Part shown: positions 1 to 55,124 of the stretch, piece by piece
How positions within the stretch are numbered: the stretch's first letter is position 1
Layout: each line of letters begins with the position of its first letter
Assembly (NCBI GenBank): GCA_963743305.1
Contig: CAVUPH010000025.1
Span: 1-64,000 of the forward strand
From: an uncultured delta proteobacterium
GTDB taxonomy: Bacteria; Desulfobacterota; RBG-13-43-22
Direction of reading: 5' to 3'
DNA: 64,000 nucleotides
Translations under genes and position numbers: made by a program
Notes under the pieces: model-generated
Told to the model about the DNA's origin: nothing
What the model saw: the letters and a program-made list of their open reading frames with translations, nothing else
Database searches by the model: none

Positions 1-359
1 AGGGCTGTTCAAAAGACAGCGGCATCCAGGAGGGGCTTATGCCTGGTCAACGCCATGCACATACCGGCCTCGGTCTTTATCAACGACGACGAGTCCGGGC
101 CTGCACGAGGACTACGAGCGGTGGCTGGAGAAACTGGCGCCGCCACGATCCGTCGCCGCAACCAGTATCTGCATCACAACCGCAATCGGGCGAGGACAAC
201 GGCGACGCGCACCTGACAGCGCCAGATCATGGGCCGGGAGGTGGTGGTAGCCGTCACCGGAGGGCAAACTCGATTTCGGACCCTGGGAGCAAGATTTCTT
301 ACGGAGAATTCAACGGGGGAAGGAAGAAAAGGGTCTTAGTGAAAATTATTGGAGAATAG
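1..359 (+). CDS. yjbQ: YjbQ/UPF0047 family protein, 5'-truncated by the window edge, several indels
   Basis: Reading across frames gives [38 protein letters not shown]...[22 protein letters not shown]...[26 protein letters not shown], matching the UPF0047 family. Confidence 0.85.
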   Translation, partial: [118 protein letters not shown]

Positions 360-443
360 CGGAATAGTCCCACAAAATCAAGTTTAAACCTTGGGTTATG
401 CTACATAATCGGTTTGAAGGATAATCCAGGGAAAAAACGGGAT

Positions 444-1655
444 TTATTTTACCGATCTAAGTTCAACCATCTCCTTCACCCCTTCATTCCACTCCGCCAA
501 CATCCGCCCGCCGATCTCCCGGAATTCCGGATGTTCATTCAGGTAGGCTGAAAGACTTGTCCGCGTTTCCGTTACCGCCTCGGCCATGCGCTCGATGGTG
601 TCGGCGACGATCCTAACCGGCAGCGAAAGATGAGACACGGCAAAGCGCTCCAGTATTTTACGGGGCCACCATTTCTTGGTTCCCGCTACGGAAAGAGCGG
701 GTACGTCCTTTTTGAGATAGGCCGTGGTGGTCACCAGGTCGTAGACCGGCGCCAGCGTCACCACACCGGAAGGGGTGGGGTACAGGACTCCGAAATTCTT
801 TAAATGGCCGTCTCCGTTGCGCACCATCACCGACAGCACCAGGGTCGCGAAAAACTGCTCCTGGGCTGCCGGGAGGTAGTCACCGGAAACAAAGTCTCGG
901 ATGCTCCGGGCCACCCGTTCATAGCTCCCGGTGTATTTTTGCGCGGTCCCCAGGGCCTGGAGGCTGCACATATCCTCGAACCCGATAGAGGTGCCCTCCG
1001 GGGTCAGGTCAAATCGGCGCAGGATGAATAAGCCGCTGTTCCGGGAGAGATGGAATTCCGGCACCGGCAAGCCGGCCCGCTTGGCCGCCGTCATGCAGAA
1101 ATACTCATTGGCGGCTATTTGCGGGTAATCCGCGCCCCCGGACTTGACGATAAAACCCGCCGCTGAAAGGGTGCCGCGCTCGGTGGCCTCCAGCATAACC
1201 TTGGGTTGGATTCCGGAAATCCCGGAACGGAGGGCGTAGCGGGCCACCAGGTCCTGGAAGAGCTCCCGACTATCCGGGTAGGTGAGCAGCTCATCGAGAG
1301 ACTCGGGGGTTTCGGATAGACGGGGCGAATCGTCCCCGGGGAGGGAGAACCGGTTTCTCCCCACCTGATTCCCCCCGGTTACACGGAGGATCGACAGATC
1401 ATCTTCGCCCACCAGCTTGGCAATGGCCCGCCGAATCGTCTCCAACAGGGCGCCTTCCGGCAGGTTCATCTGAAATATGGGATGCAGTTCGCGGCTCAGC
1501 CAACTTTCCAACCGAACCGGCATGGTCAGGGAAACCTGGGCATCGGCAGCGGCTTCCGGGGAATAGGCGAAGACATAATCCCGACCTCCCTCGCGGGCCA
1601 GAATACCTGCTGGCTTGTCCCCGGCCCATACGGCCAACGACGTGACTCCTCCCAT
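444..1655 (-). CDS. hipA: HipA-family Ser/Thr kinase toxin with fused HipA N-terminal domain
   Basis: ISGIQPK P-loop, RRFD, FEDMCSL, NGDGHLKNF and LAPVYD motifs; N-terminal VSLTMP...HPIFQMNLPEG. Confidence 0.93.
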   Translation of the reverse strand: MGGVTSLAVWAGDKPAGILAREGGRDYVFAYSPEAAADAQVSLTMPVRLESWLSRELHPIFQMNLPEGALLETIRRAIAKLVGEDDLSILRVTGGNQVGRNRFSLPGDDSPRLSETPESLDELLTYPDSRELFQDLVARYALRSGISGIQPKVMLEATERGTLSAAGFIVKSGGADYPQIAANEYFCMTAAKRAGLPVPEFHLSRNSGLFILRRFDLTPEGTSIGFEDMCSLQALGTAQKYTGSYERVARSIRDFVSGDYLPAAQEQFFATLVLSVMVRNGDGHLKNFGVLYPTPSGVVTLAPVYDLVTTTAYLKKDVPALSVAGTKKWWPRKILERFAVSHLSLPVRIVADTIERMAEAVTETRTSLSAYLNEHPEFREIGGRMLAEWNEGVKEMVELRSVK

Positions 1656-1900
1656 CAGCCAATCTCCTCGTTTCGCAACTCCTCCAAGGTAGGCGGCCTG
1701 CCTTTGGACCGGACCTTCAACTCCAGTCCTAGAAGATCGAGGAGGCGGATCAATTTCCGCACTCCAACCTCTTGGACCGTGCCATTTTCGATCTGCCCGA
1801 TCGTGGTCCGGCTCATCCCCAGTTTTTCGGCTAATTCCTCCTGGGTCATTTTGCAGTTCTTCCGTGCCTCGCGAATTGTCTTGCCGATATCGAATAGCAT
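1655..1900 (-). CDS. hipB: HipB-like Xre HTH antitoxin
   Basis: 81 aa, IREARK...MTQEELAEKLGMSRTTIGQIENG; stop overlaps the hipA start. Confidence 0.9.
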   Translation of the reverse strand: MLFDIGKTIREARKNCKMTQEELAEKLGMSRTTIGQIENGTVQEVGVRKLIRLLDLLGLELKVRSKGRPPTLEELRNEEIG

Positions 1901-1903
1901 AAT

Positions 1904-1958
1904 TGCATTATATATAATCCATAAATAATATTAAAGTAAAAAATGAATTATATATGAT
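1904..1958. promoter_or_regulatory. Candidate HipB operator pair
   Basis: TGCATTATATATAAT and TGAATTATATATGAT: repeated near-palindromic AT boxes just upstream of hipB. Confidence 0.5.
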
Positions 1959-1965
1959 GTATTTT

Positions 1966-2025
1966 TACGGGGAATTTGACGGGGGAAGAAAGAAAAGGGT
2001 CCTGGTAAAGATTATTGGTGAGTAG
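1966..2025 (+). repeat. Diverged duplicate of the last 20 codons of yjbQ (copy of 300-359)
   Basis: Encodes [19 protein letters not shown] versus [19 protein letters not shown]; 50/60 nt identical by hand count. Confidence 0.92.
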
Positions 2026-2033
2026 GGTCGGGA

Positions 2034-2078
2034 CTACCCCAAAGCTGGGATCACGTCATCCGCCGTGGCGATCCGGTA
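2034..2078 (-). repeat. Duplicate of 3043-3087 (probable 3' end of the ATPase remnant)
   Basis: 41/45 nt direct repeat; reads YRIATADDVIPALG* versus YRIVTAEDVIRALG* on the minus strand. Confidence 0.88.
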
Positions 2079-2176
2079 GACAAAAAGTTTCAACTTCCTG
2101 AAAATCAAATCACTTGCCAGGGATGGAATACAATAATTATACTTAAGTATGAATTAGTTGATATCATGGAGGGTTT

Positions 2177-2431
2177 ATGGATCGATCTGTCAAGTTTGCT
2201 GTCAGCCTCCCGGAAAGTGAATTCCTGTCTCTTGAGGAACATAGAAAAAAGGAAGGGGTCAGTCGGAGCAGACTGGTCCTGGAAGCCTTGAGGCTCTGGA
2301 AGGAAAACAAAGAAACAAAAAAAATGGTCAGGACCTATCAGGAAGGCTATCGGCGGGTCCCGGAAAAAGTCCATGAAATTGCCGGCTGGGAGAAGACCTC
2401 GGTTGAAAGTTTTTCCCAGGAGGATTGGTAA
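2177..2431 (+). CDS. Ribbon-helix-helix (CopG-type) antitoxin of a MazEF-like pair
   Basis: VKFAVSLP...EGVSRSRLVLEAL RHH pattern, YQEGYRRVPE, acidic Trp-ending tail; overlaps the toxin start. Confidence 0.85.
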   Translation: MDRSVKFAVSLPESEFLSLEEHRKKEGVSRSRLVLEALRLWKENKETKKMVRTYQEGYRRVPEKVHEIAGWEKTSVESFSQEDW

Positions 2432-2745
2432 TGCTCCGGGGGGAAATCTGGTGGGCTAAATTGCCGCCGCCCATCGGCCGACGCCCGGTTCTTCTGCTCA
2501 GCCGCCATGAGGCCTATGCCGTAAGAAATGCCGTTACCGTTGCCGAAGTGACCACCACTATGCGGGGCATCCCGGTCGAGGTACCCTTAAATCAGGAGGA
2601 TGGAATGCCAAAGCCATGTGTTATTAATCTCGACACCCTGGCCACCATCCGGAAGGACTTGTTGGAGACCAGGATAACCATTATAAGTGATGAAAAAATG
2701 GCCCTGGTCAATAAGGCCATAAAATTCGCCCTGGCTGTTCCCTAA
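2431..2745 (+). CDS. mazF: PemK/MazF-family endoribonuclease toxin
   Basis: MLRGEIWWAKL...GRRPVLLLSR...TTT.RGIPVEV.L...C.INLD. Confidence 0.92.
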   Translation: MLRGEIWWAKLPPPIGRRPVLLLSRHEAYAVRNAVTVAEVTTTMRGIPVEVPLNQEDGMPKPCVINLDTLATIRKDLLETRITIISDEKMALVNKAIKFALAVP

Positions 2746-2753
2746 TTGGAGTA

Positions 2754-3011
2754 CAAAACAATATAGAAAATCGCATCATTCCGGCAATAACCGTCCTTCC
2801 TTTTGATATCGGCACGGCCAAGATCTTCGGCAGAGTCCGCGCTCAACTTGAAGAAGCTGGAACAATCCTTCCGGATGCGAATCTTCAGATTGCGGCCACG
2901 GCTCTGGGACACGACCTGGAGCTTGTGACCGGTAATCTCCGCCATTTCAGGAGAATCCCCGGCCTGAAGCTCAACGCTATCCTCGCCGGTTCACGGGGAA
3001 ACGGCGGTTGA
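2754..3011 (+). pseudogene. C-terminal half of a VapC PIN toxin (no start, no antitoxin)
   Basis: Hand translation ITVLPFDIGTAKIFGRVRAQLEEAGTILPDANLQIAATALGHDLELVTGNLRHFRRIPGLKL; not in the ORF track. Confidence 0.85.
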
Positions 3012-3042
3012 TTTCTTTTAACCCTAATTAGCCTGGCCGGCA

Positions 3043-3370
3043 CTACCCCAAAGCTCTGATCACGTCTTCCGCCGTGACGATCCGGTAGGAGCGGCCGTGT
3101 CTTTTTAAACCAAGCCGGCACTCCGGCATGGATTTTCTCCAGAACTTTTTCTGAAACCGCTCCTTCGTGCCACTTTACTTCGCCTAATAAAAGGACCGAC
3201 ATGTCCTGCGACCGGGCCACCACATCCCATTCCGGCCTGGAACCACCCCAGTAGCGGCCCGCCGGAGACCATCCCCCGTACCCTGATAAGATCTCTCCCG
3301 TTTCCCCCAACGCCGGAAGGGCCAATCGGCAGATCTCCTCCCAGACCTCGGCCAACAATCCATTTTTTAT
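3043..3370 (-). pseudogene. C-terminal remnant of an archaeal-type ATPase with DUF234/PD-(D/E)xK tail
   Basis: WEEICR...GRYWGG..PEWDVVARS...LLLGEVKW; ATPase domain missing, frame break before the presumed last codons. Confidence 0.7.
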
Positions 3371-3430
3371 ACCTAAAAACATAATGTCTTTCCTCATAAT
3401 CTTTAGTTCGAAAATAACCTCGCGCCCCCG

Positions 3431-3527
3431 GTCATTGCGAGGAGAGAAGCGACGAAGCAATCCCCCTGTTGGCTGACAACGCTCCCTGACCTCAATCGGG
3501 GGATTGCTTCGTTTCACTCGCAATGAC
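3431..3527. repeat. Palindromic mini-element, GTCATTGCGA...TCGCAATGAC family
   Basis: Terminal IR GTCATTGCGAG/CTCGCAATGAC, inner GAAGCAATCCCCC/GGGGGATTGCTTC; second copy at 20678-20776. Confidence 0.85.
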
Positions 3528-3578
3528 AGGGGATCGGTTATTTTCATGTTTCGGGATTGCCTGCTGTAGGCATGGGGG

Positions 3579-3746
3579 TTTAGTACGAATATAGAGGTTG
3601 GTGATTATTCCTGCCCCCTGAAAATCCCCCTAAATCCCCCTTTGCCAAAGGGGGACTTTAACTCCCCCCTTAGAAAAAGGGGGGTTGGGGGGGATTTTCA
3701 GGCTCCGCGGGTGCCCGCCCCGTGCCCGAGGGTTTGGTATAAATTT
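3579..3746. repeat. ~170-bp dispersed repeat with CCCCCTTTG..AAAGGGGG hairpins (copy 1)
   Basis: Aligns end to end by eye with 41680-41848, including CCCCCTTTGC-AAGGGGGACTTTAACTCCCCCCTT. Confidence 0.88.
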
Positions 3747-3761
3747 TGGGATAAAAAAACC

Positions 3762-3814
3762 TTGACAAGAGAAGTGACATTAAGTAATAACGTTATTAGT
3801 CAATATATTGACTA
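3762..3814 (+). promoter_or_regulatory. Sigma70-like promoter with perfect 18-bp palindromic operator
   Basis: TTGACA(3762)-17 nt-TAATAA(3785); TAGTCAATATATTGACTA at 3797-3814 upstream of the catabolic operon. Confidence 0.65.
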
Positions 3815-3866
3815 TCAATATTTTTATTGTTTGCCGATTAAAAAAATATAAAGAGGGAGGTCAACA

Positions 3867-5324
3867 GTGGACGTTAAATCAAAACTGTCCGAATTCGTTG
3901 GGGCTGAAAACTTCTCGGATGATCCGGCTCAGTTGCAAAATTATGCCACCGATTTCAGCTACACCCCGGCCGGGGCACCCAATTACGTTGTGAAACCGGG
4001 GAGTTCCGAGGAAGTGGCCCAGGTCGTCCGGTTCTGTCAGGAAAAGAGCCTGCCGGTCGTGCCCTGCAGTTCCAAGGTCCATTTTTTTGGCGCCACCATC
4101 CCCAGGGAGGGGGGAGTGGTTCTCGACCTGTCCCGGATGAACCGGATCCTGGAGATCGACGCCGACAACCGCCGGGTCCGGTTCGAGGCCGGAGTCACCT
4201 GGGGTCAAATGACCGCCGAACTGAAAAAGGCGGGCTTCCGGGTCATCATGCCCTTGACGCCGCCGGCCGAGCGCTCCGTGCTCACCGACTTCCTGGAACG
4301 GGAAGAACCCACCAACCAGGTCTATGATTACGGCGAACCCCTGGAGGCCATGGAAGTGGTCTGGCCCACCGGCGAAATTTTCCGCATGGGTTCCGCCAGT
4401 GTCAACGGCTATCCTGAATCCAGCTCCAAGGGGGCGAACCCTTCGGGGCCGGGGCTCGATTTTTACCGGTTTTTCCAGTGCGCCCAGGGGACCATGGGCG
4501 TAGTCACCTGGACCAATTTAAAAATTGAATCCATCCCCAGGATGGACAAGGTCCTTTTCGCCCCGGTGGAGGACCTGGAGGAGGCCATCCAGTTTCTGCA
4601 CCGCATCCTGCCGCGCCGGATCGGCCAGGAAGTCCTGCTGCTGAATCCGGTGGAGCTGGCAGCGCTGCTGGCCGAGGAATGGCCGGAGGATTTCGACCGC
4701 TTGGAAGCGGCCTTGCCTCCCTGGACCCTGATCCTGGTGATCAGCGGCCTCAAGCGACGTCCGGAGGAAAAGATCGCCTACGAAGAGCATTTTCTGGCGG
4801 AAGTCCTCCGCAACGAATTTCCGGGTCTGAAACTGGGGGAGACCCTCCCGGGATTTCCCGGCCTGCACCATAAAATGCTGAAGCTGCTTCGGAACCCCTG
4901 GCCGGCCGATCGGCCCCACTGGAAGAATAGGCTCAAGGGGGCCTGCCAGAGCCTCTTTTTTCACACCCGGCCTCTCATGGCCCCGGATTTTATCGACCGC
5001 GTCGTGGAAATCGCCGAGGGCTACGACTATCCCATCCGGGAACTGGGGATTTATCTCCAACCCATCGAGCACAACCGGGCCTGCCGCCTGGAGTTCAATT
5101 TTTTCTACGATCCTCTCGATCCAGACGAGATAGAGGCCATCCGGGCGCTTTTTAAGGAAGCGGCCAAGGAACTGCTCAATGAGGGGGCGGTCTTCACCCG
5201 GCCTTACGGGGACCTGGCGCCCATCGTCTATGAGCGGGCCGCGGTATACGCCCATCAGCTCAAGCGGCTGAAAAAGGTCTTTGATCCCAACAACATCATG
5301 AATCCTTCACAACTGTGTTTCTAA
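3867..5324 (+). CDS. FAD-binding oxidoreductase (GlcD/VAO-type fold)
   Basis: P.YVVKPGSSEEVAQVV, GGVVLDLSRMNRILEID, GTMGVVT, LKKVFDPNNIMNP. Confidence 0.88.
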   Translation: MDVKSKLSEFVGAENFSDDPAQLQNYATDFSYTPAGAPNYVVKPGSSEEVAQVVRFCQEKSLPVVPCSSKVHFFGATIPREGGVVLDLSRMNRILEIDADNRRVRFEAGVTWGQMTAELKKAGFRVIMPLTPPAERSVLTDFLEREEPTNQVYDYGEPLEAMEVVWPTGEIFRMGSASVNGYPESSSKGANPSGPGLDFYRFFQCAQGTMGVVTWTNLKIESIPRMDKVLFAPVEDLEEAIQFLHRILPRRIGQEVLLLNPVELAALLAEEWPEDFDRLEAALPPWTLILVISGLKRRPEEKIAYEEHFLAEVLRNEFPGLKLGETLPGFPGLHHKMLKLLRNPWPADRPHWKNRLKGACQSLFFHTRPLMAPDFIDRVVEIAEGYDYPIRELGIYLQPIEHNRACRLEFNFFYDPLDPDEIEAIRALFKEAAKELLNEGAVFTRPYGDLAPIVYERAAVYAHQLKRLKKVFDPNNIMNPSQLCF

Positions 5325-42288: not shown

Positions 42289-42522
42289 ATGAAAACCATG
42301 GCCATTAGTGAATTTAAAGCCCAGGCCTTAAAGGTGATAAACGAAATCGCCCAATCCAGGGAACCCGTGGTCATAACCAAACGGGGCCGGCCGCTGGCCC
42401 GGGTTGTCCCCGTTCAGAAGAGTGAAACCAAGGCCACACCCGGGAAACTTGCCGCTGCCTTTGTTTTCGAAAAAGACATTGTTACCCCGCTAGGGCCGGA
42501 ATTGTGGGAAGCCAGCCGGTGA
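42289..42522 (+). CDS. Phd/YefM antitoxin
   Basis: MAISEFKAQALKVI.EI...REPVVITKRGRPLARVVP. Confidence 0.92.
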   Translation: MKTMAISEFKAQALKVINEIAQSREPVVITKRGRPLARVVPVQKSETKATPGKLAAAFVFEKDIVTPLGPELWEASR

Positions 42523-42956: not shown

Positions 42957-43922
42957 TTACATAATACAATCTTGAACAGCTCCCGGTGATGAGTTCCCGA
43001 ACTGAGGCAGTTGGGCGCCGGGGAACTGCATCCGGCATTCAAGCGCACAGCGAACGGGATTTGGTGAGGTGCTATAAAAAGTCTTCTCCTGTTCCGCCTT
43101 TTCCTTCCTTTCCCGTTCATCGGTTATCCCTTCCGGCGTGTCGTCTTTGGCCCCTAGTTCCCGCGATAACGTCTTCCCGGCATCCGCCACAAGCGGTCCG
43201 CAGCGACGCGCTTCTTCCGCGGAAGCCAGACCCAGAACGGCGATATAGCCGAGGGGTCGGCCGCTGGGACCCAGTACCGGCGCGGCCACCGCGTTGAGGC
43301 CCGGGGTGGTTTCCTCCAGGTCCTCGGCGAATCCATCCCGCCGGCAACGGTCCAGGTCTTTCATGAGTTTTGATTGGTCGAAACGGGACGGGTCCCCGTA
43401 AAAGTAAAGCTTCTTCTCCCTGAGTACATCTCGCAGTTCGGCCTCCGGGAGAAACGAAGCTATGGCCTTCCCATGGCAGCCGTAGGTGAGCGGCAAACGA
43501 TGTCCGACCCGCATGGTTACCACGACCGGACCGGGGCCTTCCCGCTTGGCGGCCACGAAGACGTTTCGGCCGGCGATCAAGCCCAGGGCCGCTGTGGTCC
43601 CGATCTTGCCGGCCAGTTCCTCCAGGATCGGCTCGGCCAGGCGGGGGGCGCTGAGATCGTCGAGGACCTTCCGGGAAAGGGAGATCAGACTGGGACCCAA
43701 AGCGTAGCCCTTTCCTTCTTCATTCTTCCGGATCAGTCCAAACCGCTGCAGCGTCTCCAGAATGGTAAAGGCCTTGCTCTTGTGGATCCCCACGCGGTCA
43801 CAGATTTCGTTGAGGCTCAGGGCCGGGGCCGGAGTTTCGGCGAGACGGAAGAGGATGCGCGCGGCCTGCTCTACGGCCGGCGATACATAGCGGTCATTGT
43901 TTTTCTTGATCGGGTCTTTCAA
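42957..43922 (-). CDS. IclR-family transcriptional regulator (last ~60 aa probably non-homologous read-through)
   Basis: PAVEQAARIL, HTH SLNEIC.RVGIHKSKAF.IL, HGKA, GLNAVAAPV, LSRELG. Confidence 0.9.
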   Translation of the reverse strand: MKDPIKKNNDRYVSPAVEQAARILFRLAETPAPALSLNEICDRVGIHKSKAFTILETLQRFGLIRKNEEGKGYALGPSLISLSRKVLDDLSAPRLAEPILEELAGKIGTTAALGLIAGRNVFVAAKREGPGPVVVTMRVGHRLPLTYGCHGKAIASFLPEAELRDVLREKKLYFYGDPSRFDQSKLMKDLDRCRRDGFAEDLEETTPGLNAVAAPVLGPSGRPLGYIAVLGLASAEEARRCGPLVADAGKTLSRELGAKDDTPEGITDERERKEKAEQEKTFYSTSPNPVRCALECRMQFPGAQLPQFGNSSPGAVQDCIM

Positions 43923-44071: not shown

Positions 44072-44359
44072 ATGCTGATGGAGGAACACCTGGGCACTAT
44101 TACCCAGAAAGGACAGGTCACCATTCCTCTGGCGATCCGCAAGCTACTAGGGGTGAAATCACGGGACCGGGTGGCCTTCCGTGTCATCGAGGGGCGGGTG
44201 GAACTTGCCCCGGCCACGATGTCTCTGGAAGACACCTACGGGGCGGTCAAGCCGACCGCCCGCCCTGAAAAATGGTCTGAGATCCGCCGCCGGGTTCGGG
44301 AGGAAAGGGTGGGGCTAAGGACCGGCAAAACCATCCGTCCACGGAAGGAAGGCCGCTGA
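44072..44359 (+). CDS. AbrB/MazE/SpoVT antitoxin
   Basis: TITQKGQVTIPLAIRKLLG....DRVAF. Confidence 0.9.
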   Translation: MLMEEHLGTITQKGQVTIPLAIRKLLGVKSRDRVAFRVIEGRVELAPATMSLEDTYGAVKPTARPEKWSEIRRRVREERVGLRTGKTIRPRKEGR

Positions 44360-44766
44360 TGGATTTTTTGGATACCAATGTGATCCTCCGGTACCTGACC
44401 CGGGACGACCCGGTTAAAGCCGAACGTTGCTACGAGCTTTTTCAGCGGGTCGAACGTAAAGAGGTCCGGCTGACGACCTCGGAATCGGTTCTGGCCGAAG
44501 TGGTATATGTGTTATCCTCCCGGTCGGTTTACAATCAAGGCCGCGAACAAGTGCGGAATTTGCTATTGCCGATCGTCTCTCTAAGTGGACTTCTGGTTCC
44601 ACATCGACGCTCATTCTTACGGGCCCTCGAATTCTACGCCGTCACGAATATGGATTTTGAAGATTGCCTTTCCCTGGCCCATATGGAACGGTTGAAAATA
44701 AAAACAATTGTGAGCTACGATCGGGATTTCGACCGGATAAATACCATCCAGCGCCACGAGCCCTGA
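44359..44766 (+). CDS. vapC: VapC PIN toxin
   Basis: FLDTNVILRYL, VLAEVVYVL, DFEDC, SYDRDFD. Confidence 0.92.
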   Translation: MDFLDTNVILRYLTRDDPVKAERCYELFQRVERKEVRLTTSESVLAEVVYVLSSRSVYNQGREQVRNLLLPIVSLSGLLVPHRRSFLRALEFYAVTNMDFEDCLSLAHMERLKIKTIVSYDRDFDRINTIQRHEP

Positions 44767-45023: not shown

Positions 45024-45162
45024 AGTGGAGATGATATCGCCGCAGTTCATGGGTGGATGAAACCTGGGTAAGGGATTTTTGGGGAAAGAACCACTGCCGG
45101 ATAAAATGCGAGGTTGCCCCGGGGCAACCTTGCATTGGGACAGAATTGAGGTGCTGCGCCAA

Positions 45163-46525
45163 ATGACACGTCAAACGGTTTTCATAAGCAAGGCCACACC
45201 GGAAGATGATGAATTCGTCTTATGGCTTGCGCCACGGCTGGAGGCTTCAGGGTACACGGTATTTGCAGACATCCTGACTTTGGAAGCGGGCGACAGATGG
45301 CGCAAGGTAGTCACTCAAACTTTGCGGAAATCCGTTAAGATGCTTCTCTGTTGCAAAGATTCAACATTGGAAAAGGATGGTGTACAGGAAGAGATTGGTA
45401 TTGCGTTGGACATAGCCAAAGAAATCCAAGACCCTCGTTTTATCATACCACTTCGTCTTGAACCGTTTAAACGGCTATTCGGCATAGGGGAGATACAGTA
45501 CATTGATTTTGTCGGCAGTTGGGCGAGAGGTCTTCAAAGCCTGTTTGATACATTGGAAAATCAGGATGTCCCGCGACTAAAAGAAAAAATTTTGATTAAT
45601 CCGAACTGGGAGAACTACAAGAAGCGGCTCGCCATAAAGATTGAGGAGTCCCCCGAAATCCTGACCACGAGCTGGCTGAGCATTGCCCAGGTGCCGGAAT
45701 TCATTCGCTATTACCATCCTCCTGGCGCCGTTAACCAGTCGTTGATGCAAAGATGCTGCAACACCAATCCATCCCCTGCCGAAGTCTACCAACGCGGTTT
45801 CTTTTCCTTTGCGCTCCCCGAAGAGGTCAACCGTGATTTTGCCTATGTTGCCAAGTTCGTTGTCCGGAACCGAACACAATCTGATGGAACTTATTGAGAA
45901 CGGCAGCGAATCGCCTGGTATCAAGGCCAACGTCGCCGCTAATCTTGTCCTCTCCATGTTTCGCCGCAGTTGGGAAAGATTCTGCCGTAAGAAGGGTCTC
46001 TTTGAGTACCAATTCTCAGGGTCAATCGGGATTCTTGTTACCAAGGGACAAGTACCCCTTGGCAAGAGAATCCCCTGGGGAGAGAAATCCCTGCGCCGCT
46101 CCGCTATGCTCCGCAATGCCGCCAGTGGAAAGGTGTGGGAATACGGCGCTACGGCGACGCCATTTCTTCGGCCTTTTCCCCATTTCAAGTTCAAGGCCCG
46201 AATTCTCTTTTCCGAACAGTCCGGGAAAGAGGCCGGAGCAGTCATTCAGGACGCAGACAAACAGCATTACCACAGACGAACCATCTGCAGCAGGTGGCGC
46301 AATAAGGCCTGGCATGGGCGGTTCATGGCTTTTCTCGAATTGTTGTCAGGTTCCTCGCCATATATTGAATTGGCACTTGCCGAGTCATCTTCACTCGTCC
46401 TCGACGCACATCCCATTCTTGCGACATCCCCGGTTACAACTCTGTTGCCCGACACCATGCCGGAAGATGCGGAAGAGCAGGACCTTTCAACCCTGGGCAA
46501 CTTTGAAATGGAGGGTGAAGAGTAA
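45163..46525 (+). CDS. SPARTA TIR-APAZ effector (NADase), one frameshift near 45875
   Basis: VFISKATPEDDEFVLWL...GY.VFADI...GVQEEI...FIIPL...IDF..SWARGL matches the Maribacter/Crenotalea TIR-APAZ pattern; APAZ end QH..RR..C..W.N..W. Confidence 0.9.
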
Positions 46526-48079
46526 TGGACCTGCCGGAAAAGCATCTGGAGGTTGTGTATATCCCGGAGCCTGATCTCTGCTTCGGCTACGGTCAGGTGT
46601 GCGATCACCCGAAGGACGGTCTTTTTCTCTATGGTCCCCATTCCGGACCGACGCGGTCGAAAGAAATCTCCATTGGCGTGATCGGCACTCATAATGGTCT
46701 TAAATACTTCCGGAATTGGGCAATAAAGTTAGGGGGCTTCATTCCGATTCCTCCACCCGGCAAGACCGATAAAGAACATCGCTTGCATCTCTCCAATTTT
46801 CCCGGTATGGAAGAAGCCTTCGGTCTTGTTATCAGTCCTGGCGATTTTGTCGAGCTCAAGATCAGTCCGGATGAACTGGATAGAGCAACTAGGACCGCCA
46901 ACCATCATGAGGCGGTAAGGAAGGCAGTTGATCTATACATTCATGAAATCGAACGTTACGACAGGAATGAAGAACGCACGGTAGATATCTGGGTGTTTAT
47001 CCTTCCCGAACTGATTTTCGAGCGGTGCAAGTCACTTGCGAAGCGTACCGGACTTGAACTCGTCAAGGGTGATTTTCTCGAAGAAGCAGAAGGAACGCTT
47101 CGACATGCCGTTGTTTGCTGGGGTGATAGACCAGAGCGATGAAGCCATTTTCGACGATGTCCCCGACTTCCACCGCCAGGTCAAGGCACGGCTCCTGAAA
47201 TTCGGGCATACCTCGCAGCTGTTGCGGGAAACAACACTGGCGCCGGATGAATTTCTGAATAAAGCGAATCGTCCGACACGGCGGCTGCAAGATCCAGCAA
47301 CAGTGGCATGGAATTTGGCTACGGGCCTTTACTACAAGACGCAGCCGGAACCACCCTGGAAGGTGGCCAATGTGCGGCCGGGAGTCTGTTATATCGGCCT
47401 CGTGTTCAAGAACATTCCCAGAGACCCGAATGGTCATGTGTGCTGCGCGGCTCAGATGTTCCTGAACGAAGGAGACGCGGTTGTATTCCGCGGCGCCAAT
47501 GGTCCTTACAAGACCGGTGATTACGAATACCACCTCAAGGCCCCGGAAGCCAAAAGACTCATCTCAAAGGTGCTCGAAACCTTCCGGGATAAGCACGGAA
47601 CTATGCCTGACGAATTCTTTATCCACGGGAAAACGTACTTCAATAACGAGGAATGGGACGCCTTCTGCGAAGTCGCTCCGGCGGGCACCAACATTATTGG
47701 TGTCCGGATCAAGACGACCAGCGGCGATACGAAGCTTTTCCGGAATGGCGATTACCCCGTTATCCGCGGCACCGCACTAAAGCTTGATGAGCGAAGCGCC
47801 TACCTCTGGACAAACGGCTACGTCCCACGGCTGGATACTTACATAGGCCCGGAAACGCCCAATCCCCTCCATATCACCATCCAGAGAAGCACCGGCCTGC
47901 TCCCCGACATCCGAACCGTTTTGGCCGATATCATGGGGCTGACCAAGATCAACTACAACGCCTGCAACTACAATGACGGTCTTCCGGTCACCATACGGTT
48001 TGCCGAGAAGGTGGGAGAAGTGCTGGTTATGGGATCGGCAAAGGATGCGGAGAAACAACCGTTGAAGTTTTATGTATAA
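46525..48079 (+). CDS. Short prokaryotic Argonaute (MID-PIWI) of SPARTA, one frameshift near 47075
   Basis: YIPEP.L.F..GQ....[63 protein letters not shown]...DG.PVTIRFA.KVGE, KFYV. Confidence 0.93.
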
Positions 48080-48528
48080 GTTTGCGAAAAAGAAAAGAGA
48101 CAAGTTGCTTTTGTTGAGCGGAGTGGGGTCGCGTAAAGGTAACTGATTGATCTTAAACACAATATAGGTAAGATCATCCTTTAAAATGGGGCTATTTCGA
48201 GCTTTCGGCCGAATCGGGTCGGACCCAATGCCGTTAACTTAACAGAAAGAGCCTGTTTTTACTATCTTTGATGGCTTCGGGTTCCAGGGGTAACGGTTGT
48301 AGGACAGGGTATTTGCAAGGACGTCCCCGGCGACGCTTTTCAAAGCCCCGACTTTTTCGGCGATATTCCTGTCGATCCTGAGTGAACTGACGGCCCGGTT
48401 TTATAGACACGCGGTGACGGGCACAGGAGTTTATGAAGACTTCCCAACAAGAAAAGTGAGGGTCCGATCCCAATTGTTTCAATGGAAAATACCGCCTTCG
48501 CCGAAAGCATTTGAAAAGGAGGACCACC

Positions 48529-51500
48529 ATGCGTGTCAGCCGTTTGATTAAGTCGGCCATATCGTTAATTGTCGTGCTGCTCTGCCTGCTTTCCCCAAAC
48601 AAGGCCGCGGCCTCGACCGCCACCTTTCTGGCCGTGGCGGACGCGACCCTCAAAAGCAACTCACCGGATAGCAATTTTGGGGGCGATTCGACCCTCATCA
48701 TGACTTACGATCCCATTGAGTCAATCAAAGATGTGACGCTGGTCCGCTTTGATCTCTCTTCTCTGCCGGCGGATGCCATCATCGACAGCAACAGCCTGGA
48801 ATTATATCTGGAAAGCAGCGGCGGGCTCGATCCGGTCGGCCTGGCTGTCTATCTCGTGACCACGCCCTGGGCGGAGTCTACTGTCACGTGGAACACCAAT
48901 CCGACCACTTTCCCCTATGGCCTCCTCTGGCAGGTAGATGGGGCCTCGGGCTGGAAATCGATTGGCATCTCAACGAGTTGGATCACCAGTTGGCGGACCG
49001 GTAGCAATAACGGCCTATTGATCTATGGTCCGGTTTCTGGCGCCCAAGGCTATCACCGCAACTTTATCAGCCGAGAGCGGGGCTGGGACCCGCCGCGACT
49101 CACTGTCACTTACCACCGCCACACGGCCTTTGCCGGGCATGTCTACAGCGGAAACGCCATCGGCGATACCAGCCACCCGTTGGGAGACGTTGACGTGGCC
49201 CTCTACTGTTCGAGCGATCCGAATGTGCAGGGAGCGTTGGCCGACAGAACCAGCACGGATGAGTTGGGGGCCTTCAGTCTGGCGACGGATGAGACCTGCG
49301 AGATTTACAACATCATGGCCTTCGCCCCATCGGGCTACTACTCCCTCGGCGCCACCTCCAGCAATGGAATTATAAAAGCGGCCCATTGGATCCAGTATGT
49401 CTCCAATCAGACGGGGCAGGCTTTCACCGGGGATGCTTTCTTTGTCCATGTCCAAACCCCCAGCGATACTACTCCTCCCGACAACTGGACAAACTTTGCC
49501 CCGACGCAGTGGGTCACCTCCCAAACCGTTCACGTTCAGGAACAGGTGGAAGACACCCTCTCGGGGCTGGATGTCTCCACCGCCAAATGCAGCTACTCGA
49601 TCGATGGCGGTTCTTCCTGGAGCCCCTGGCGGTCGGCCTCGATCAGCGGGACGGGCGGAACAACCACCCCGCAGATCATCTCGGCCGACATCCCCTTCGG
49701 GCAAGACTCCGGACCGGCGAGCCTGAACCTGGTCCGGTTCCAGGTCGCCGACATGGCGGGCAATCCCGGCACCGGACCCAGCCACGCGGTCAAGGTGGAT
49801 TCGGTACCGCCCCAGAATCCGACCAGCCTGATCAGCACCAGCCATTCCCCGGGAGTCTGGTCCAACAACCCCCACGTCGCCTTTCAATGGACCGGCGCCG
49901 TGGATGACCGCAGCGGGTTAAAAGGGTACTCCTACGCCTGGGACAATTATTCCGGTACGGTGCCGGGTGTGTTCGTGGATACGGCGGCTGCCTCCTTGAC
50001 TCTAACGGCAGCGGCGGATTCGTCCGGGTGGTGGCTCCATGTGCGGGCTATCGATCAGGCGGGCAATGCCGCCAGCGGGGCGCAGCATCTGGGACCCTTC
50101 CCTATCGATATCACGCCGCCCACGGTTTTTTTGACCGAACCGGCGACGGGCAGCGTGAAAACAGCGACGTTCAATGTGGCCTGGAGTGGCAGCGACGGGC
50201 TTTCGGGAATTAGCGGTTACGATGTGCAAGTGAGCACCGATGGCGGGGCCTGGAACAACTGGCATCCGGGGGTCACCTATCAGTCGGCTTTCTTTACCGG
50301 GGAGCGGGCCCGAACCTATTCCTTCCGGGTGCGGGCTTGGGACCAGGCGGGAAACGTAAGTGGCTGGTCCACATCGGGGGTGGTACGGGTCGGGGGGGAC
50401 GTTACCGTGCGGGTTGAAAACGAAAACGGCCTACCGGTCAGCGGAGCGGATATTTACCTGAACGGGAAGCTGCAATCCACCTACGGGGCGGCCGTAGCCA
50501 CCCTGCACGACGTGCTGGCAGGCGATCAACTGGTCGCCCGCTACCTGGTCGAGCAACGCCCCTCCCCCAAGGGCTACCACAACTGGGTGTACGGAGACTG
50601 GTCGTACCGCATCTACATCACCAGCCTTGGTTTCGATAACAACGGCATTCCCCAGTTCTTCACCATCAGCGATCCGACGGCCACGCAGGTGCTGGTAGTG
50701 CGTCGTACCCAGCCCCTGATTGGCTTCTATGTGCTGGCCTCGGTAGAATGGGAAGCAACCACGGCCTTTCTGGATCAGTTGATGGACGGCTTTCGAGAGG
50801 CTTCCGCTTATCTATTCGACTTGACGGATGGCCAGATGCTGTTCGAGGTCATTGAGATGGACGATAATAAGGCCCGTTGGGCCCAAGCGGATTATTACAT
50901 CCAGGCCGCAAACGGGTACCGGGCCAATGCCACCGTAGGCGGCGTCTGGCAGGGCACGAATGCCCATGCTTACATGGGGCGCGGTTTTGATTGGACGGAC
51001 CTCAGCCATTTCCGGGCCTTGGTCCATGAATTTGGTCATTATGGGCTGGATTTGGGCGATGAATATTTCGACGCGGATGGTAGAGAAGACACGGGTGCCA
51101 AGTGTACGACCGACCGCAGCAATGCGGATGGCGTCGATCAAGCTTGTCTCATGGCCAACGAAAAAGTTGCCACGGAGATGTGCTCTTTGCTGACGGTCCA
51201 TCCCCATAGCACCAATACCATGCAAGAGGCAACTCGCCACGAGCCCTGCTGGGAAACCGTATACAAGCGATACCAGGACACTCAGAATCCGCCACGCTGG
51301 ATCATCCAACGCCCCCAGGATCGCGGCAGCATCATGCCTGGGCCCACTAGCATTCCGGTGACCGATTGGGTGTGGGGTGGGACTCGTATCAAATCAAACA
51401 CCGGGGCCTGCGGATCCTTCGATCTCCGCTGGGTGTTCGTGGCGGACGGCAGCCCGGCCGCGGACTTTGACGTTTGGGTGGAAGGCAACAGCCCTTTGTA

Positions 51501-52371
51501 CCAGGGGAAGACGGACAAAAACGGGCTGATTTCGATTGTCGGCGCGCATAGCGGAGATACGATCCGGGTGCAGAAGAGTTGTGGTTCGGACTGCTCCAAT
51601 TCCGGATCGGTCACGGCGAATTGCGCGACTGGGCAACTGGCAGGTGAGCCCGTACCCCTAAAGCTTAAACAAGACCCGTTTGCGCTGGCCGTCAAGGTAA
51701 CGCCCTCGGCTGAGGGGACAACCGTAGATATTTCGGCCCAAGCATCCACTACCCTCGCGGCTACGCCAACCCTTCAAATTTATCAAGCCGGTTCGCCAGA
51801 TCCCCTGACAGTGGCGCTGACTTTTGATGGTGCGGCTTACACCGGCAGTGTCGCCTTGAATCCCGCTTTGGAATTGCTGGGCGTCGTGCGAGGGGAAGCG
51901 GTGGATGGCAGCGGTCATTCCGTCGTCACCCTCACGCCTTTCAAACTGAATCGGGTGGATTCGGGTCAAATAACCTGGCTGCGCTCGGAAGACGGCAAGG
52001 TGGACATATTCCTCAAGCCCGGCAGCCTGACCGGAGATCCGGTCGTGAGTGTTTCCCGCGCCTCTCAAGTGAACCTGAGACAGGAAGGGCTGGTCCTGGT
52101 CGGAAGCCCTTATGCGGTGACGGTCTCCAATGGGCAAGAAGCTTTGCAGGAAAAAGCCGCCGTCAACATCCATTACGACCCGGATGCGGTGCCCGGTCGG
52201 GATCCCGGCGCTTTGCATATCTATCGCTGGGATGAACAGTCTCAAAAATGGGTCGACGATGGCGGTGCGGTCAGCCGTGAAAACCAAGCGGTAACCACTA
52301 CGGTTGGACGCCTGGGGACTTTTGTCCTGGCCTGGGAACCCAAAATCCATTTGCCGCTCATTTTCAGGTAG
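48529..52371 (+). CDS. Large secreted multidomain protein: DNRLRE domain, Ig/Fn3-like repeats, HExxH zincin (CLCA-like)
   Basis: Signal peptide; ADAT....PD.NFG...LVRFDLS..P..A.I....L.LY...W.E..VTWN; D..PP/D.AGN repeats; HEFGHYGLDLGDEY; C-terminal IHLPLIFR. Confidence 0.85.
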   Translation: MRVSRLIKSAISLIVVLLCLLSPNKAAASTATFLAVADATLKSNSPDSNFGGDSTLIMTYDPIESIKDVTLVRFDLSSLPADAIIDSNSLELYLESSGGLDPVGLAVYLVTTPWAESTVTWNTNPTTFPYGLLWQVDGASGWKSIGISTSWITSWRTGSNNGLLIYGPVSGAQGYHRNFISRERGWDPPRLTVTYHRHTAFAGHVYSGNAIGDTSHPLGDVDVALYCSSDPNVQGALADRTSTDELGAFSLATDETCEIYNIMAFAPSGYYSLGATSSNGIIKAAHWIQYVSNQTGQAFTGDAFFVHVQTPSDTTPPDNWTNFAPTQWVTSQTVHVQEQVEDTLSGLDVSTAKCSYSIDGGSSWSPWRSASISGTGGTTTPQIISADIPFGQDSGPASLNLVRFQVADMAGNPGTGPSHAVKVDSVPPQNPTSLISTSHSPGVWSNNPHVAFQWTGAVDDRSGLKGYSYAWDNYSGTVPGVFVDTAAASLTLTAAADSSGWWLHVRAIDQAGNAASGAQHLGPFPIDITPPTVFLTEPATGSVKTATFNVAWSGSDGLSGISGYDVQVSTDGGAWNNWHPGVTYQSAFFTGERARTYSFRVRAWDQAGNVSGWSTSGVVRVGGDVTVRVENENGLPVSGADIYLNGKLQSTYGAAVATLHDVLAGDQLVARYLVEQRPSPKGYHNWVYGDWSYRIYITSLGFDNNGIPQFFTISDPTATQVLVVRRTQPLIGFYVLASVEWEATTAFLDQLMDGFREASAYLFDLTDGQMLFEVIEMDDNKARWAQADYYIQAANGYRANATVGGVWQGTNAHAYMGRGFDWTDLSHFRALVHEFGHYGLDLGDEYFDADGREDTGAKCTTDRSNADGVDQACLMANEKVATEMCSLLTVHPHSTNTMQEATRHEPCWETVYKRYQDTQNPPRWIIQRPQDRGSIMPGPTSIPVTDWVWGGTRIKSNTGACGSFDLRWVFVADGSPAADFDVWVEGNSPLYQGKTDKNGLISIVGAHSGDTIRVQKSCGSDCSNSGSVTANCATGQLAGEPVPLKLKQDPFALAVKVTPSAEGTTVDISAQASTTLAATPTLQIYQAGSPDPLTVALTFDGAAYTGSVALNPALELLGVVRGEAVDGSGHSVVTLTPFKLNRVDSGQITWLRSEDGKVDIFLKPGSLTGDPVVSVSRASQVNLRQEGLVLVGSPYAVTVSNGQEALQEKAAVNIHYDPDAVPGRDPGALHIYRWDEQSQKWVDDGGAVSRENQAVTTTVGRLGTFVLAWEPKIHLPLIFR

Positions 52372-52375: not shown

Positions 52376-52540
52376 GATTTGAACACGGTCCGGGCGGGAG
52401 TTGCCGCGCACCCGCGGGAATGGCCCTATTCCGGATATAAGGAAATTCAAACGCCCCGGTGAAGATAGGGCCTGATCGATCACGAGAGACTGATGGATTT
52501 AACCGGGGTGAAAAGCCGGCAGGACTTCAAAGAACTCCAT
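52376..52540 (+). pseudogene. Fragment of a REP-associated tyrosine (Y1/HUH) transposase
   Basis: DLNTVRAGVAAHPREWPYSGYKEIQTPR*R*GLIDHERLMDL matches the N.VRAG...HP..W..S region; two in-frame stops. Confidence 0.75.
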
Positions 52541-52604
52541 CTTCGCGGCCTATCGGCGGTTGAGTTTAGGCCTTGGGCACTGGAGGTACAGAGAGGAGTG
52601 CACG

Positions 52605-52949
52605 ATGAGCAACGAACAGGTGGCACCCGAGACGAAAGGGGTTACGGTGAAGTTACTGGCAACGGTTGACCTTGGCCCTGAGATCGAGGGCCTGGCAGGG
52701 CGCCAACTTAGAATGCGTATGGTGACCATCGAGCCCGGAGGCGTCTTCGGCCCGGTTCACGACCATAAAGGCAGACCAGGCACCGTCTACATACTGCAAG
52801 GAACGATCACGGACCATCGAAATGGAATGGCTACGGACTATGGACCGGGAGTGGGCTGGCCCGAGGATAGGAACACCACTCACTGGCTTGAGAACAGAGG
52901 AACGATTCCGGCAGTGGAGATCTCGGTCGATATAGTCAGGCAAGAGTAA
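52605..52949 (+). CDS. Cupin domain protein
   Basis: LRMRMVTIEPGG...HDH..RPG.VYILQG.I, HWLENRG. Confidence 0.88.
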   Translation: MSNEQVAPETKGVTVKLLATVDLGPEIEGLAGRQLRMRMVTIEPGGVFGPVHDHKGRPGTVYILQGTITDHRNGMATDYGPGVGWPEDRNTTHWLENRGTIPAVEISVDIVRQE

Positions 52950-52991
52950 ACCTCAACGTGGCATAAAAAACAGGGCGGAAAATAAATAGAG

Positions 52992-55124
52992 TTAATATCC
53001 ATTGGAATAAAATGTCTTCCCGGATTCCCCCATTTCCCGGATGAGCCTCGCCGGTTGATAGCGGGGTCCGTAACGCTTTCCCAGGTCCAACAGCTTTTCA
53101 TAGACCTGCTTTAACCCCCAGGCATCGGCGTAGCGCAGGATGCCGCCGCGGTAGGCCGGAAAGCCGGTGCCGTTGATCATGGCCAGGTCCATGTCCGGGG
53201 GACGGTCGCAGATCCCTTCGGCGATCATCAGGGCCGCCTCGTTAATGCCCAGGGCCAGGAGGGTGTCGACAATTTCTTGAGGTTCCATTTTCTGAGGAGC
53301 AATCCCCTTCTCTTGCTGATACTCTCGTATCACTTCCCCCACTTTGGGGTTAGGGACAGGCCTGCCACCCGAATAGTCAAAATATCCGGCCCCGGTCTTC
53401 CGCCCGTAGCAACCGGTCTGATAAATCCGTTCGATCAGGGGATGCAGGGTGTAGCGCTTCCCCAGCTTCCGGGCGAAAGTCTGGTTAACATGGTAACCGA
53501 TGTCGATCCCGGTCAGGTCTTCCAGGGCGGCCGGCCCCAGGGGCATCCCGAAGTCCTTAACGGCCTGCTCGATGGCCGCCAAATCCACACCGTCGGCCAG
53601 CAGGTAGGGCATACCGGCAAACAGGGCGATGAGTTGACGGGTTACATAAAAGCCGGGGCCGTCGTTGACCACCAGCATGAATTTTTTAATGCTCTTGGCG
53701 AAGGAGACACCGGTGGCCAGGGTCTGGTTTGAGGTCTTCTCCCCGCAGATAATTTCCAAAAGCGGCATCCGCTCCGCCGGGTTGAAGAAATGGAGACCGA
53801 TCATTCGTCCTGGATCTTTCAGGACGGAGGCCATCTCGGTGATGGGCAGGGCCGAGGTGTTCGTTCCGAAAATCGTTTCCGGTCTACAGATCTCGTCCAG
53901 TTTTTTCCAGATCTCCCGCTTGACCTCCATATCTTCCAACACGGCCTCGATCACCAGGTCTACATCCTTCAGACCCTCAAGCGAAGTGGTGGTGAGGAGT
54001 CGGTCTCGGATCAGTCCCTCAAGATTCTCCTCGGTCATTTTCTTCTGTTTGATCGGATAAGCAAAGCTCCGACGGACTGCCTCCAGCCCTTTTGAAGGGC
54101 ACTCTCGTCGATATCCCAGAGCACGGTCTCAAAACCGTTTTTAATCAGCAGATGGACAATCCCCGAGCCCATGACTCCGCCGCCCAGCATGGCCACCTTC
54201 TTGATTTTAGCCGGTTCGAGGCCCTTGATCCTTGGGTGCCGTCCGGCCGCTCGGGTGTTCAAAAAAACGCCGATCAAATTTTTGGCGATAGCGGATACAG
54301 CGCAATCGCTAAACAGTTCCACGTCCCGGCGGATGTCGATTTCCAGATCGGCAGTCAGCCCTTGCTCCAAGGCCTCCAGGGCCTTGAAGGGGGCCAAGAC
54401 CCCCCGGAATTTTTTGGCGTTCCGATTTTTGAATTCCTCGATGACGGCCTTTTTCTCTTCCGCGTCGGCTAGAAGATCCTTTCGATTCCGGGTTATCCGC
54501 TGCCCCGGTCGAGTTCTCCGGAAATAAACCGACGCGCGGCCTTCAGGGCGGCCTCCTGCAATTCGTCGGACCCGACCACCTCATCCACCAATCCCAGCGT
54601 CCGGGCCTCCCCAGCCTTGATCGGTTGACCGTAGGCGATCATCTCCAGGGCACGAGGGAGACCGATCAGCCGGGGCAGCCGCTGGATCCCGCCCGCCCCG
54701 GGAATCACCCCGAGTTGGACCTCCGGCAGCCCCAGAAGGGCCTCGGGGACGGCCAGCCGGTAATGCCCGGCCAGGGCCGCCTCGAATCCGCCGCCTAAAC
54801 AGTTGCCGTTGACGGCCATGACCACCGGCTTGGGTGCGGTTTCGATGGCGGTGAATAATCCGGCTGCGGTCCAACCCAATTGAAAGGCCTCCTCCGCGTT
54901 TTCAGCGATTGCAGTTCCGTAATATCGGCACCGGCAATAAAATTCTTTCCAGTCCCCGTCAAGACCAGGGCCTTGACCGCCGGATCGCCCATAGCCGCTT
55001 CAATGGCGTCTCTCAGGTCCCGGCTGAGTTGGGGGGACATGGGATTGACCGGCGGATTGTCGATGGTCAGGACGGCGGTTTGGTCCTGGAGTGATATTTT
55101 GATGGTTTTATATTCGGTTCGCAT
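52992..55124 (-). CDS. fadB: Enoyl-CoA hydratase/3-hydroxyacyl-CoA dehydrogenase (FadB/FadJ type), several frameshifts
   Basis: IDNPPVN, FIAGADI, LGGGFE, LPEVQLG.IPG.GG.QRLPR, LGGGVMGSGI, IEAVLED, TNTSAL, HFFNPA. Confidence 0.9.

Follow-up and report, generated by a model that had tools for sequence, protein, structure and literature searches.

Duplicated gene ends around toxin-antitoxin and defense cargo in an uncultured delta proteobacterium, and their possible origin by tail displacement

Integrative elements that supply their target with a replacement 3′ end include islands at tRNA genes, phage 21 and e14 at icd, and the SCCmec and pseudo-SCC arrays at rlmH. Integrases typically prefer the 3′ ends of genes. 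Displacement of the C-terminal tips of Rhs proteins was reportedly described by Jackson in 2009. Here we describe pairs of duplicated gene ends that bracket toxin-antitoxin (TA), defense and other accessory genes in the genome of an uncultured delta proteobacterium. The DNA stretch that was analyzed (the window) is 64,000 nucleotides long and corresponds to C25:1-64000 of a metagenome-assembled genome (MAG), G000 (4.9 Mb in 43 contigs, 90% complete, 5.7% contamination). It is compared with other contigs of G000 (C7, C38 and C6) and with two relatives of the same genus (G002 and G003). The layout seen in the window is real and generalizes within this genus.

Homology-facilitated illegitimate recombination (HFIR) has been proposed for the orphan arrays, and sequential displacement, of effector and immunity genes of type VI secretion systems (T6SS), in the accessible part of that article (PMC5361080). 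It has also been invoked for dimorphic loci, in the accessible part of a second article (PMC2884548). In the defense hotspots of E. coli, nearly all of the cargo is carried on recognizable mobile elements with integrases, as the available portion of a third article describes them (PMC10121019).

The loci reported here are similar to the T6SS and Rhs cases, as far as the accessible text of that source goes (PMC5361080), in having a conserved upstream anchor gene, DNA added beside it, older 3′ pieces with their companions pushed downstream, and no integrase. They differ in that the anchors are metabolic or housekeeping-type genes rather than polymorphic toxins, the conserved gene end itself is duplicated, and the cargo consists of free-standing TA, defense and metabolic genes. 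As in the E. coli hotspots, to the extent that they are described in the part of the source cited above, variable defense cargo is located between conserved flanking genes, but there is no recognizable mobile element here. With integrative elements the loci share the order of gene end, cargo and displaced end, as well as tandem accretion and repeats similar to attachment (att) sites that bound recombinase-less cassettes; an array on contig C7 with tRNA-Sec ends fits this pattern directly. On the other hand, the window pairs have neither a near-identical core nor a recombinase, the repeat lengths vary, and many targets are used in one genome. As in integron arrays, each new cassette enters at one end, and TA genes are frequent among the cargo. 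In comparison with integrons, however, there is no IntI-like gene (eight PF00589 hits, none at the loci), and the repeats are coding gene ends under purifying selection rather than attC palindromes.

The finding most likely fits known displacement and accretion processes in an altered form, and represents ordinary recombination rather than a new machine. The movement of small TA and defense islets that have no mobility gene is poorly explained. This lineage carries at least 12 datable scars with empty-site relatives, from which the homologous, illegitimate and site-specific contributions should be separable.

The three tail pairs

Pair A (296-359 and 1962-2025) is a direct repeat of 64 nt on the + strand with 83% identity, and TAG ends both copies. 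The 54-nt copies of pair B (2026-2079 and 3035-3088) are 89% identical; they are coding on the - strand (YRI.TA.DVI.ALG*) and extend 8 nt beyond the stop codon. Pair C (41898-41948 and 53007-53057) covers 51 nt on the - strand with 82% identity, and the repeat ends 6-15 nt short of the stop codons. The blastn E-values at the scale of the genome are 1.7e-5, 6.7e-11 and 2.7e-4 for A, B and C, respectively, and the longest identical runs, as read from the alignments, are about 12, 14 and 9 nt. The parent families are mutually unrelated: UPF0047 for A (YjbQ-like, assigned via an intact copy on C7), ATPase_2 with DUF234 for B, and 3-hydroxyacyl-CoA dehydrogenase for C. The cargo between the copies is a hipBA module in A, an RHH-MazF unit with a PIN fragment in B, and 11 kb of mixed genes in C. 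An earlier note on this DNA had pointed to three such instances at the 3′ ends of unrelated genes, and both the repeat searches and the family assignments bear it out.

In the window, none of the three parent genes is intact. The UPF0047 copy (1-359, + strand, with tail A1 at 296-359) is a 3′ part, as the start of the contig cuts off its 5′ portion. Several frame changes are needed to read it, and it is therefore considered a pseudogene copy; metagenome contigs have one letter fewer at about positions 38, 94, 217 and 264 of this gene. Its orphan, A2 (1962-2025, + strand), is a deletion-trimmed UPF0047 stub, of which 57 nt are 100% identical to C7:16689-16745. The orphan tail B2 (2026-2079, - strand) abuts A2 at 2025/2026, as expected of two convergent gene ends and like the native gene end in G003. 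Tail B1 (3035-3088) belongs to an ATPase_2/DUF234 gene remnant (3035-3416, - strand) that is about 1 kb shorter than the 505-aa gene of G003. Tail C1 (53007-53057) is the end of the 3-hydroxyacyl-CoA dehydrogenase part of a FadB-like gene (52992-54397, - strand), broken into at least two ORFs, and C2 (41898-41948, - strand) is its orphan.

Profiles for tyrosine recombinases (PF00589), serine recombinases (PF00239) and rve (PF00665) gave no hit on the contig of the window, on C38, on C7:1-30000 or at about 10 other tail loci, in agreement with the absence of an integrase reported before. The totals for G000 are 8, 0 and 5 hits, respectively. The Pfam scans also covered the open reading frames (ORFs) of the three cargoes and part of the cargo on C7 and C38. 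As a positive control, the 3′ 48 nt of a tRNA-Val gene were found repeated 6.8 kb away with 98% identity, with an integrase fragment beside the tRNA (G000:C42:34548-41446). No tRNA was found in the window, so there is no tRNA att site within the window itself. The ends of the window cargoes have no terminal inverted repeats. A transposon with a target-site duplication was considered and rejected, as there are no terminal inverted repeats and no transposase, and the divergence is mostly synonymous.

Origin, divergence and recurrence of the copies

Relatives of the same genus show sites that lack the cargo. In G003, the order is UPF0047, hipBA (97% identical to window 405-1967), a 47-nt UPF0047 stub, and directly thereafter the intact 505-aa DUF234 gene. 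As the stub abuts the intact gene, pair B represents a 1009-nt insertion, made up of the 54-nt repeat and 955 nt of cargo. In a public sediment contig (run X2), position 2009 is joined to 3045 with 20 other letters between them, which is an empty B site. The public contigs examined were short Logan contigs, and the best sequencing run held a fraction of 0.27 of the words of window 1-4200.

For pair C, G003 has on one contig the XDH small subunit, 195 nt and the dehydrogenase tail, at a place where the window has 11.6 kb. Of the 51 positions, 46 in orphan C2 and 43 in the attached tail C1 agree with the G003 tail, and C2 also has the downstream flank of G003. Moreover, C1 is contiguous with a cupin gene, and the same junction is found in G002:C11 (96%) and in C38 (93%). 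The orphan C2 is therefore the native tail with its native flank, and the attached tail was imported with the cargo. In C38 a 183-nt orphan precedes the cupin gene, and between this orphan and the parent gene a histidine kinase/response regulator gene is inserted at -183. This contig shows the next step of displacement, a further insertion proximal to the gene.

Similar relationships are found elsewhere in the genome. In G002:C20, an enoyl-CoA hydratase gene is followed by 167 nt and the flank, a place where G000 has AbiE and other genes. A displaced piece with its native flank, together with an empty site in relatives, is thus found at B, at C and at the hydratase locus, and the boundaries of the empty sites are exact. 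These observations agree with the proposal of the earlier note that DNA is acquired at gene tails, as does the finding that in pair C the imported tail is the attached one. For a major facilitator superfamily (MFS) gene, G000 and G002 share an orthologous orphan with its downstream flank, which makes this scar older than their split; the intervening cargo measures 2.2 kb in one genome and 15 kb in the other. A placement of the crossover from the divergence of the hydratase gene from G002 (87-88% at -90 to -270, and 94-99% further upstream) was tried and dropped as too weak.

The differences between the copies carry a signature of purifying selection. Nei-Gojobori counts were made for 12 pairs, and the pooled ratio of non-synonymous to synonymous differences per site (pN/pS) is 0.24, a figure that includes a row for pair B taken in the wrong frame. 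Of the 11 usable pairs, 8 have a ratio of 0.25 or less. The individual values are 0.06 for A, 0.15 for C, 0 for the C10 sensor gene, 0.14 for the hydratase, 0.21 for C21, 0.09 for both the MFS and the mutY-like genes, 0.25 and 0.58 for the acyl-CoA dehydrogenase, 0.59 for C11 and 0.67 for C40. When pair B was counted by hand, there were four coding differences in three codons, all three of which are non-synonymous. With the exception of B, the incoming copy therefore has the properties of a diverged functional allele, as judged from the pooled value and from A and C. Low pN/pS means that most copies diverged as working genes in separate lineages, and not after duplication in situ. A dN/dS well below 1 between the tails had been put forward beforehand as a test of acquisition, and the copies are homeologous as it anticipated.

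A search of the tails against the genome with blastn found five more copies of UPF0047, all on C7. One is a full 139-aa gene beside an MBL-fold gene. The other four are truncated at the 5′ end (345, 225, 302 and 300 nt), and each precedes a different cargo; two large proteins are encoded there, along with a short-chain dehydrogenase, a small antitoxin-like pair, and a hipBA module accompanied by two small genes. At each copy, the 3′ end of tRNA-Sec is located 3-6 nt past the stop codon on the opposite strand, with two pieces of 34 nt at 100% identity and two of 25 nt at 96% (blastn). Next to the full gene, a fifth and more diverged piece was recognized on inspection of print-outs by eye. The tRNA-Sec piece of C7 is 100% identical over 32 nt to the tRNA-SeC gene on C6. 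The repeat boundaries on the tRNA side thus form two fixed classes (25 and 34 nt), whereas those on the gene side vary between 225 and 345 nt. A 149-aa ORF (C7:8679-9128) at the distal end of this array gives a weak match to Phage_integrase (E 2.2e-4, 21.5 bits; cut-off 27.1). G003 retains 22 nt of the same tRNA-Sec end.

No clear tRNA-Sec piece was seen at the UPF0047 copies of the window, and near-identical repeats of a tRNA 3′ end are found only on C7, not at the three window pairs. At the tRNA-SeC gene on C6 (as for a selC island), no integrase-like ORF was seen by eye, and this contig has no PF00589 hit. No tRNA was found in 23 UPF0047 neighborhood loci of G000 and its relatives, most of which span only about 3 kb. 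Instance A belongs with this array on C7, and the near-identical tRNA-Sec ends and the weak integrase remnant make it look like classical att-site accretion. For this locus, decayed or trans-mobilized integrative islets are a better reading than HFIR; this is the classical att route, which the earlier note had set aside.

In a three-way alignment with C7, the stubs of the window (64 nt) and of G003 (47 nt) turn out to derive by deletion from a C7-type copy of about 310 nt. The deletion junction in the window is at the microhomology ATTTTTTACG, and microhomology is seen only at this later deletion junction. Further deletion variants of UPF0047 are found in public contigs, and the other orphans are 74-445 nt long. 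The tails of 47-64 nt are thus deletion-trimmed stubs of gene copies of 180-345 nt, which contradicts the idea that recombination acted on tails of 45-60 nt. As a general caution, short att-like repeats can be the deletion-worn remains of much longer copies. Extra UPF0047 pieces are present in three of the four genomes of this genus (G000 included) and in one of the 14 matching genomes from other genera (17 searched).

The layout recurs well beyond the three cases, in this genome and in this genus. In an exploratory survey of G000, an ORF picker based on codon usage called 4644 genes covering 83% of the genome, and local repeats were collected with blastn in 227 overlapping 40-kb pieces (1389 hits). 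Families with more than 10 copies, and then those with more than 7, were removed. A copy was taken as an orphan when the ORF to which it maps in frame is less than half as long as the parent, and the rows kept have an identity of 80% or more over 45 nt or more. Among the 45 orphan rows that were left, 12 end within 12 nt of the stop codon and 13 more within 92 nt, 11 begin at the predicted start, and 9 are internal. For direct 3′-terminal rows, the orphan is downstream of the parent in 19 and upstream in 4 (binomial probability of about 0.001 against 1:1, by our own arithmetic), whereas the 5′-terminal rows show no bias (5 upstream, 6 downstream). The rows are not independent, for example two of them share one parent on C31, and they include one tandem segmental duplication, one tandem repeat and one RHS-like gene. 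The survey table lacks pairs A and B as well as the C7 array, because their parents were uncalled or their orphans too long. The results agree with the expectation of the earlier note that the layout is special to gene 3′ ends.

The further loci have diverse parents and cargo (parent families from profile searches, cargo named by eye unless stated). The enoyl-CoA hydratase gene is followed by AbiEi/AbiEii, the one cargo not named by eye, and an acyl-CoA dehydrogenase gene has two orphans. An MFS (AmpG-like) gene has as cargo a 452-aa protein of no known family, and a mutY-like gene has kinases and other genes. A 165-aa gene has PIN genes, a 308-aa sensor gene has a 12-kb kdp-type block, and a 614-aa gene has an 8-kb hydrogenase/antiporter-like block. 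The kdp-type and hydrogenase-like cargo indicates that the cargo is accessory in general, beyond TA and defense. The description of the cargo as TA and defense genes is therefore correct for the three pairs of the window but does not cover all of the other loci. The observation that homology stops exactly at the stop codon was considered as a mechanistic clue. Alignment ends cluster near predicted starts as well; the clue was dropped, as such clustering is expected for any diverged coding homologs. In the same genome, an RHS/YD-repeat-like gene at G000:C43:12387-18235 has a 445-nt partial copy downstream and may be a textbook case of C-terminal displacement.

Displacement and the competing explanations

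We lean towards reading the tail pairs as scars of serial tail displacement, brought about by homology-anchored and illegitimate recombination similar to HFIR and followed by decay. Accessory DNA would be added directly behind a conserved gene and would bring with it a homeologous replacement 3′ end. The 3′ end already in place would be pushed downstream together with its native flank. Having lost selection, the displaced end would then be trimmed by deletions, some of them at microhomologies, to stubs of 47-64 nt, and repeated additions would produce arrays. The joining most likely proceeds without a dedicated recombinase, with homologous pairing in the conserved gene anchoring one side and an illegitimate join closing the other, an additive form of HFIR. 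The UPF0047 locus would in addition carry an older layer of tRNA-Sec att-site islets. Homologous anchoring with an illegitimate join is favored by the variable lengths of the orphans, by the fact that cores and recombinases are absent, and by the large number of unrelated targets. If homology-anchored displacement is general, orphan gene ends would provide a cheap genome-wide marker of past acquisitions and their order.

Several observations weigh against this reading. The HFIR step and the order of events are inferred, whereas the repeats, the empty sites, the native state of orphan C2, the selection signature, the arrays, the origin of the stubs by deletion and the lack of recombinase genes are observed. 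Why tails should outnumber heads does not follow from HFIR in any obvious way, and selection on the places where insertions are tolerated must be invoked. In G002, -208 is the start of two AmpG-like orphans whose upstream DNA differs, and the hydratase tails start at -177 or at about -207; such recurring 5′ boundaries fit a fixed site or common descent. The tRNA-Sec cores in the C7 array are near-identical. The codon changes in pair B would also fit a duplication in situ followed by drift. Moreover, G000 is a MAG with 5.7% contamination, and the survey relied on a crude gene caller of our own, on thresholds that were tightened after a first look, and on rows that are not independent.

The recurring boundaries, the tRNA-Sec cores and the 3′-end bias, which fits integrases, make decayed or trans-mobilized islets a serious rival, to which we assign a minor chance for the loci as a whole. 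Such islets would be site-specific, with attP having carried the 3′ end of the target, and their recombinases would have been lost or would act in trans, as in cis-mobilizable or pseudo-SCC-like elements. The C7 copies with their tRNA-Sec ends, the sub-threshold Phage_integrase match in the same array, and the classical tRNA-Val islet with an integrase fragment in the same genome are all as this explanation would have it. For the window pairs, however, the longest identical runs are far from an identical core, no clear tRNA-Sec piece is present, and the orphan lengths vary. In addition, no recombinase was found in the window, on C38 or at about 10 other tail loci, and many unrelated targets stand against only eight PF00589 hits in the genome. 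The route suggested in the earlier note appears improbable to us. In the form considered here, circles with one tail and the cargo would integrate and excise by a RecA-dependent single crossover, with the tail as portable homology. The cargo is bracketed by direct repeats in every case, as circles would leave it. In pair B, moreover, the orphan matches G003 on the left (positions 3 and 7) and the attached copy on the right (22-23, 33 and 43), a pattern that by our own reading fits a reciprocal crossover in ACTACCCCAAAGCT, with only six informative sites. The AbiE cargo with a hydratase tail recurs at G002:C28 and G002:C21, with tails on both sides at the latter. The module at G002:C28 seems to have no second tail, but it retains an 18-20-nt tail remnant on the other side, and it is therefore a decayed ordinary locus and not a fixed-end cassette. 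The present copies are also too short and too diverged for efficient pairing by RecA, which requires about 25-30 identical nt according to the accessible part of one source (PMC2884548), and the short tails are deletion products. In pair C the attached tail is wholly foreign and the orphan wholly native, with no hybrids. The data fit circle integration and one-sided homologous plus illegitimate joining alike, and circles are not needed; the new mechanism proposed in the earlier note is only partly supported.

We regard it as very improbable that no import took place and that the pairs are duplications in situ (by long target-site duplication or slippage), remnants of old paralogs, or artefacts of assembly from mixed strains. 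The non-synonymous changes in pair B point in this direction, as do the paralog-rich families of some targets (hydratase, dehydrogenases), the frameshifted parent genes, and a contaminated MAG with many contig-end duplicates at 85-98% identity. These possibilities are contradicted by the pN/pS values far below 1 for A, C and most other pairs, by the single-copy state of UPF0047 in 16 of 17 genomes outside the genus (14 of 17 have a match at all), by the same layouts in three other MAGs and in public contigs, and by empty sites with exact boundaries. In this sediment lineage, gene-end fragments might act as portable homology handles: host recombination would capture TA, defense and metabolic cassettes that each bring a piece of a conserved gene's 3′ end, pile them up, and pass them between loci and genomes. 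We consider this extension doubtful; if true, it would amount to an integrase-free, integron-like cassette economy at 12 or more chromosomal sites.

Cargo genes and other repeats

The hipBA module of pair A (405-1969, - strand; hipA 444-1655, hipB 1655-1900) is 97% identical to the copies on C7 and in G003. In pair B, the RHH antitoxin (2177-2431) and the MazF/PemK toxin (2425-2745) are on the + strand (2177-2745), and the unit 2095-2745 also occurs in other contexts. They are followed by the C-terminal fragment of a PIN domain (2715-3011, + strand), probably a truncated VapC-like gene, in a match (E 0.00097) that falls short of the curated cut-off.

The cargo of pair C begins with a Phd/YefM antitoxin (42280-42522) and a PIN toxin (42504-42917) on the + strand (42280-42917). 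An IclR-family regulator (42957-43922, - strand) and a MazE/PrlF-like antitoxin (44072-44359) with a PIN toxin (44359-44766; pair 44072-44766, + strand) come next. A SPARTA-like pair (45079-48079, + strand) consists of TIR-APAZ (45079-46525) and a short pAgo (46525-48079). A single frame change divides each of its genes into two ORFs (PADLOC profile positions 182-420/422-636 and 2-159/163-493), which may reflect decay or an assembly error. A secreted-type protein of 1286 aa (48511-52371, + strand), which contains a CBM96 module and an HExxH motif, is followed by the cupin gene (52560-52949, + strand) that is linked to the attached dehydrogenase tail.

The 1286-aa protein was considered as a homolog of a 1310-aa cargo protein on C7, and this was rejected (best BLASTP E 0.61). 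The two giant proteins share only the HExxH stretch and the last eight residues, HLP[LI]IFR (window 52348-52371; C7:21120-21146). A 514-aa neighbor on C7 ends in LPMTLR, and the shared endings may be a sorting signal. The 230 nt located 5′ of the 1286-aa gene (48216-48446) are also found on C38, C2, C23, C14 and C6 (76-91%).

A dense TA island is found in G002:C21:1-6000, on the contig that also carries UPF0047. It contains a HigB/HigA-like pair, an AbiE module with hydratase tails on either side, and two pairs with PIN genes; apart from AbiE, these assignments come from inspection of ORF translations by eye.

Self-matches of at least 1 kb in G000 amount to about 196 kb with 64-100% identity. 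Many pairs between contigs are at 85-98% and are often located at contig ends (for example C4/C26, C3/C16, C22/C37, C13/C32, C25/C38 and C25/C7); they may be a strain mixture or real segmental duplicates. These contig-end duplicates bear on whether C7 and C38 are loci paralogous to the window or alternative haplotypes of it.

Several other repeats are present in the window. A G/C-rich palindromic repeat of about 110 nt (3600-3710 and 41703-41813), similar to repetitive extragenic palindromes (REP) or miniature inverted-repeat transposable elements (MITE), has dozens of copies in the genome and is located next to two hot spots. A dispersed repeat of about 165 nt (20640-20815) has more than 50 copies on many contigs (75-96%). 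A multi-copy family of short repeats (58097-58204 and 58821-58930) has many matches across the genome and is not a gene-tail pair. Finally, two ORFs contain tandem repeats (23317-23838, 261 nt twice at 90%; 33983-34493, 247 nt twice at 75%).

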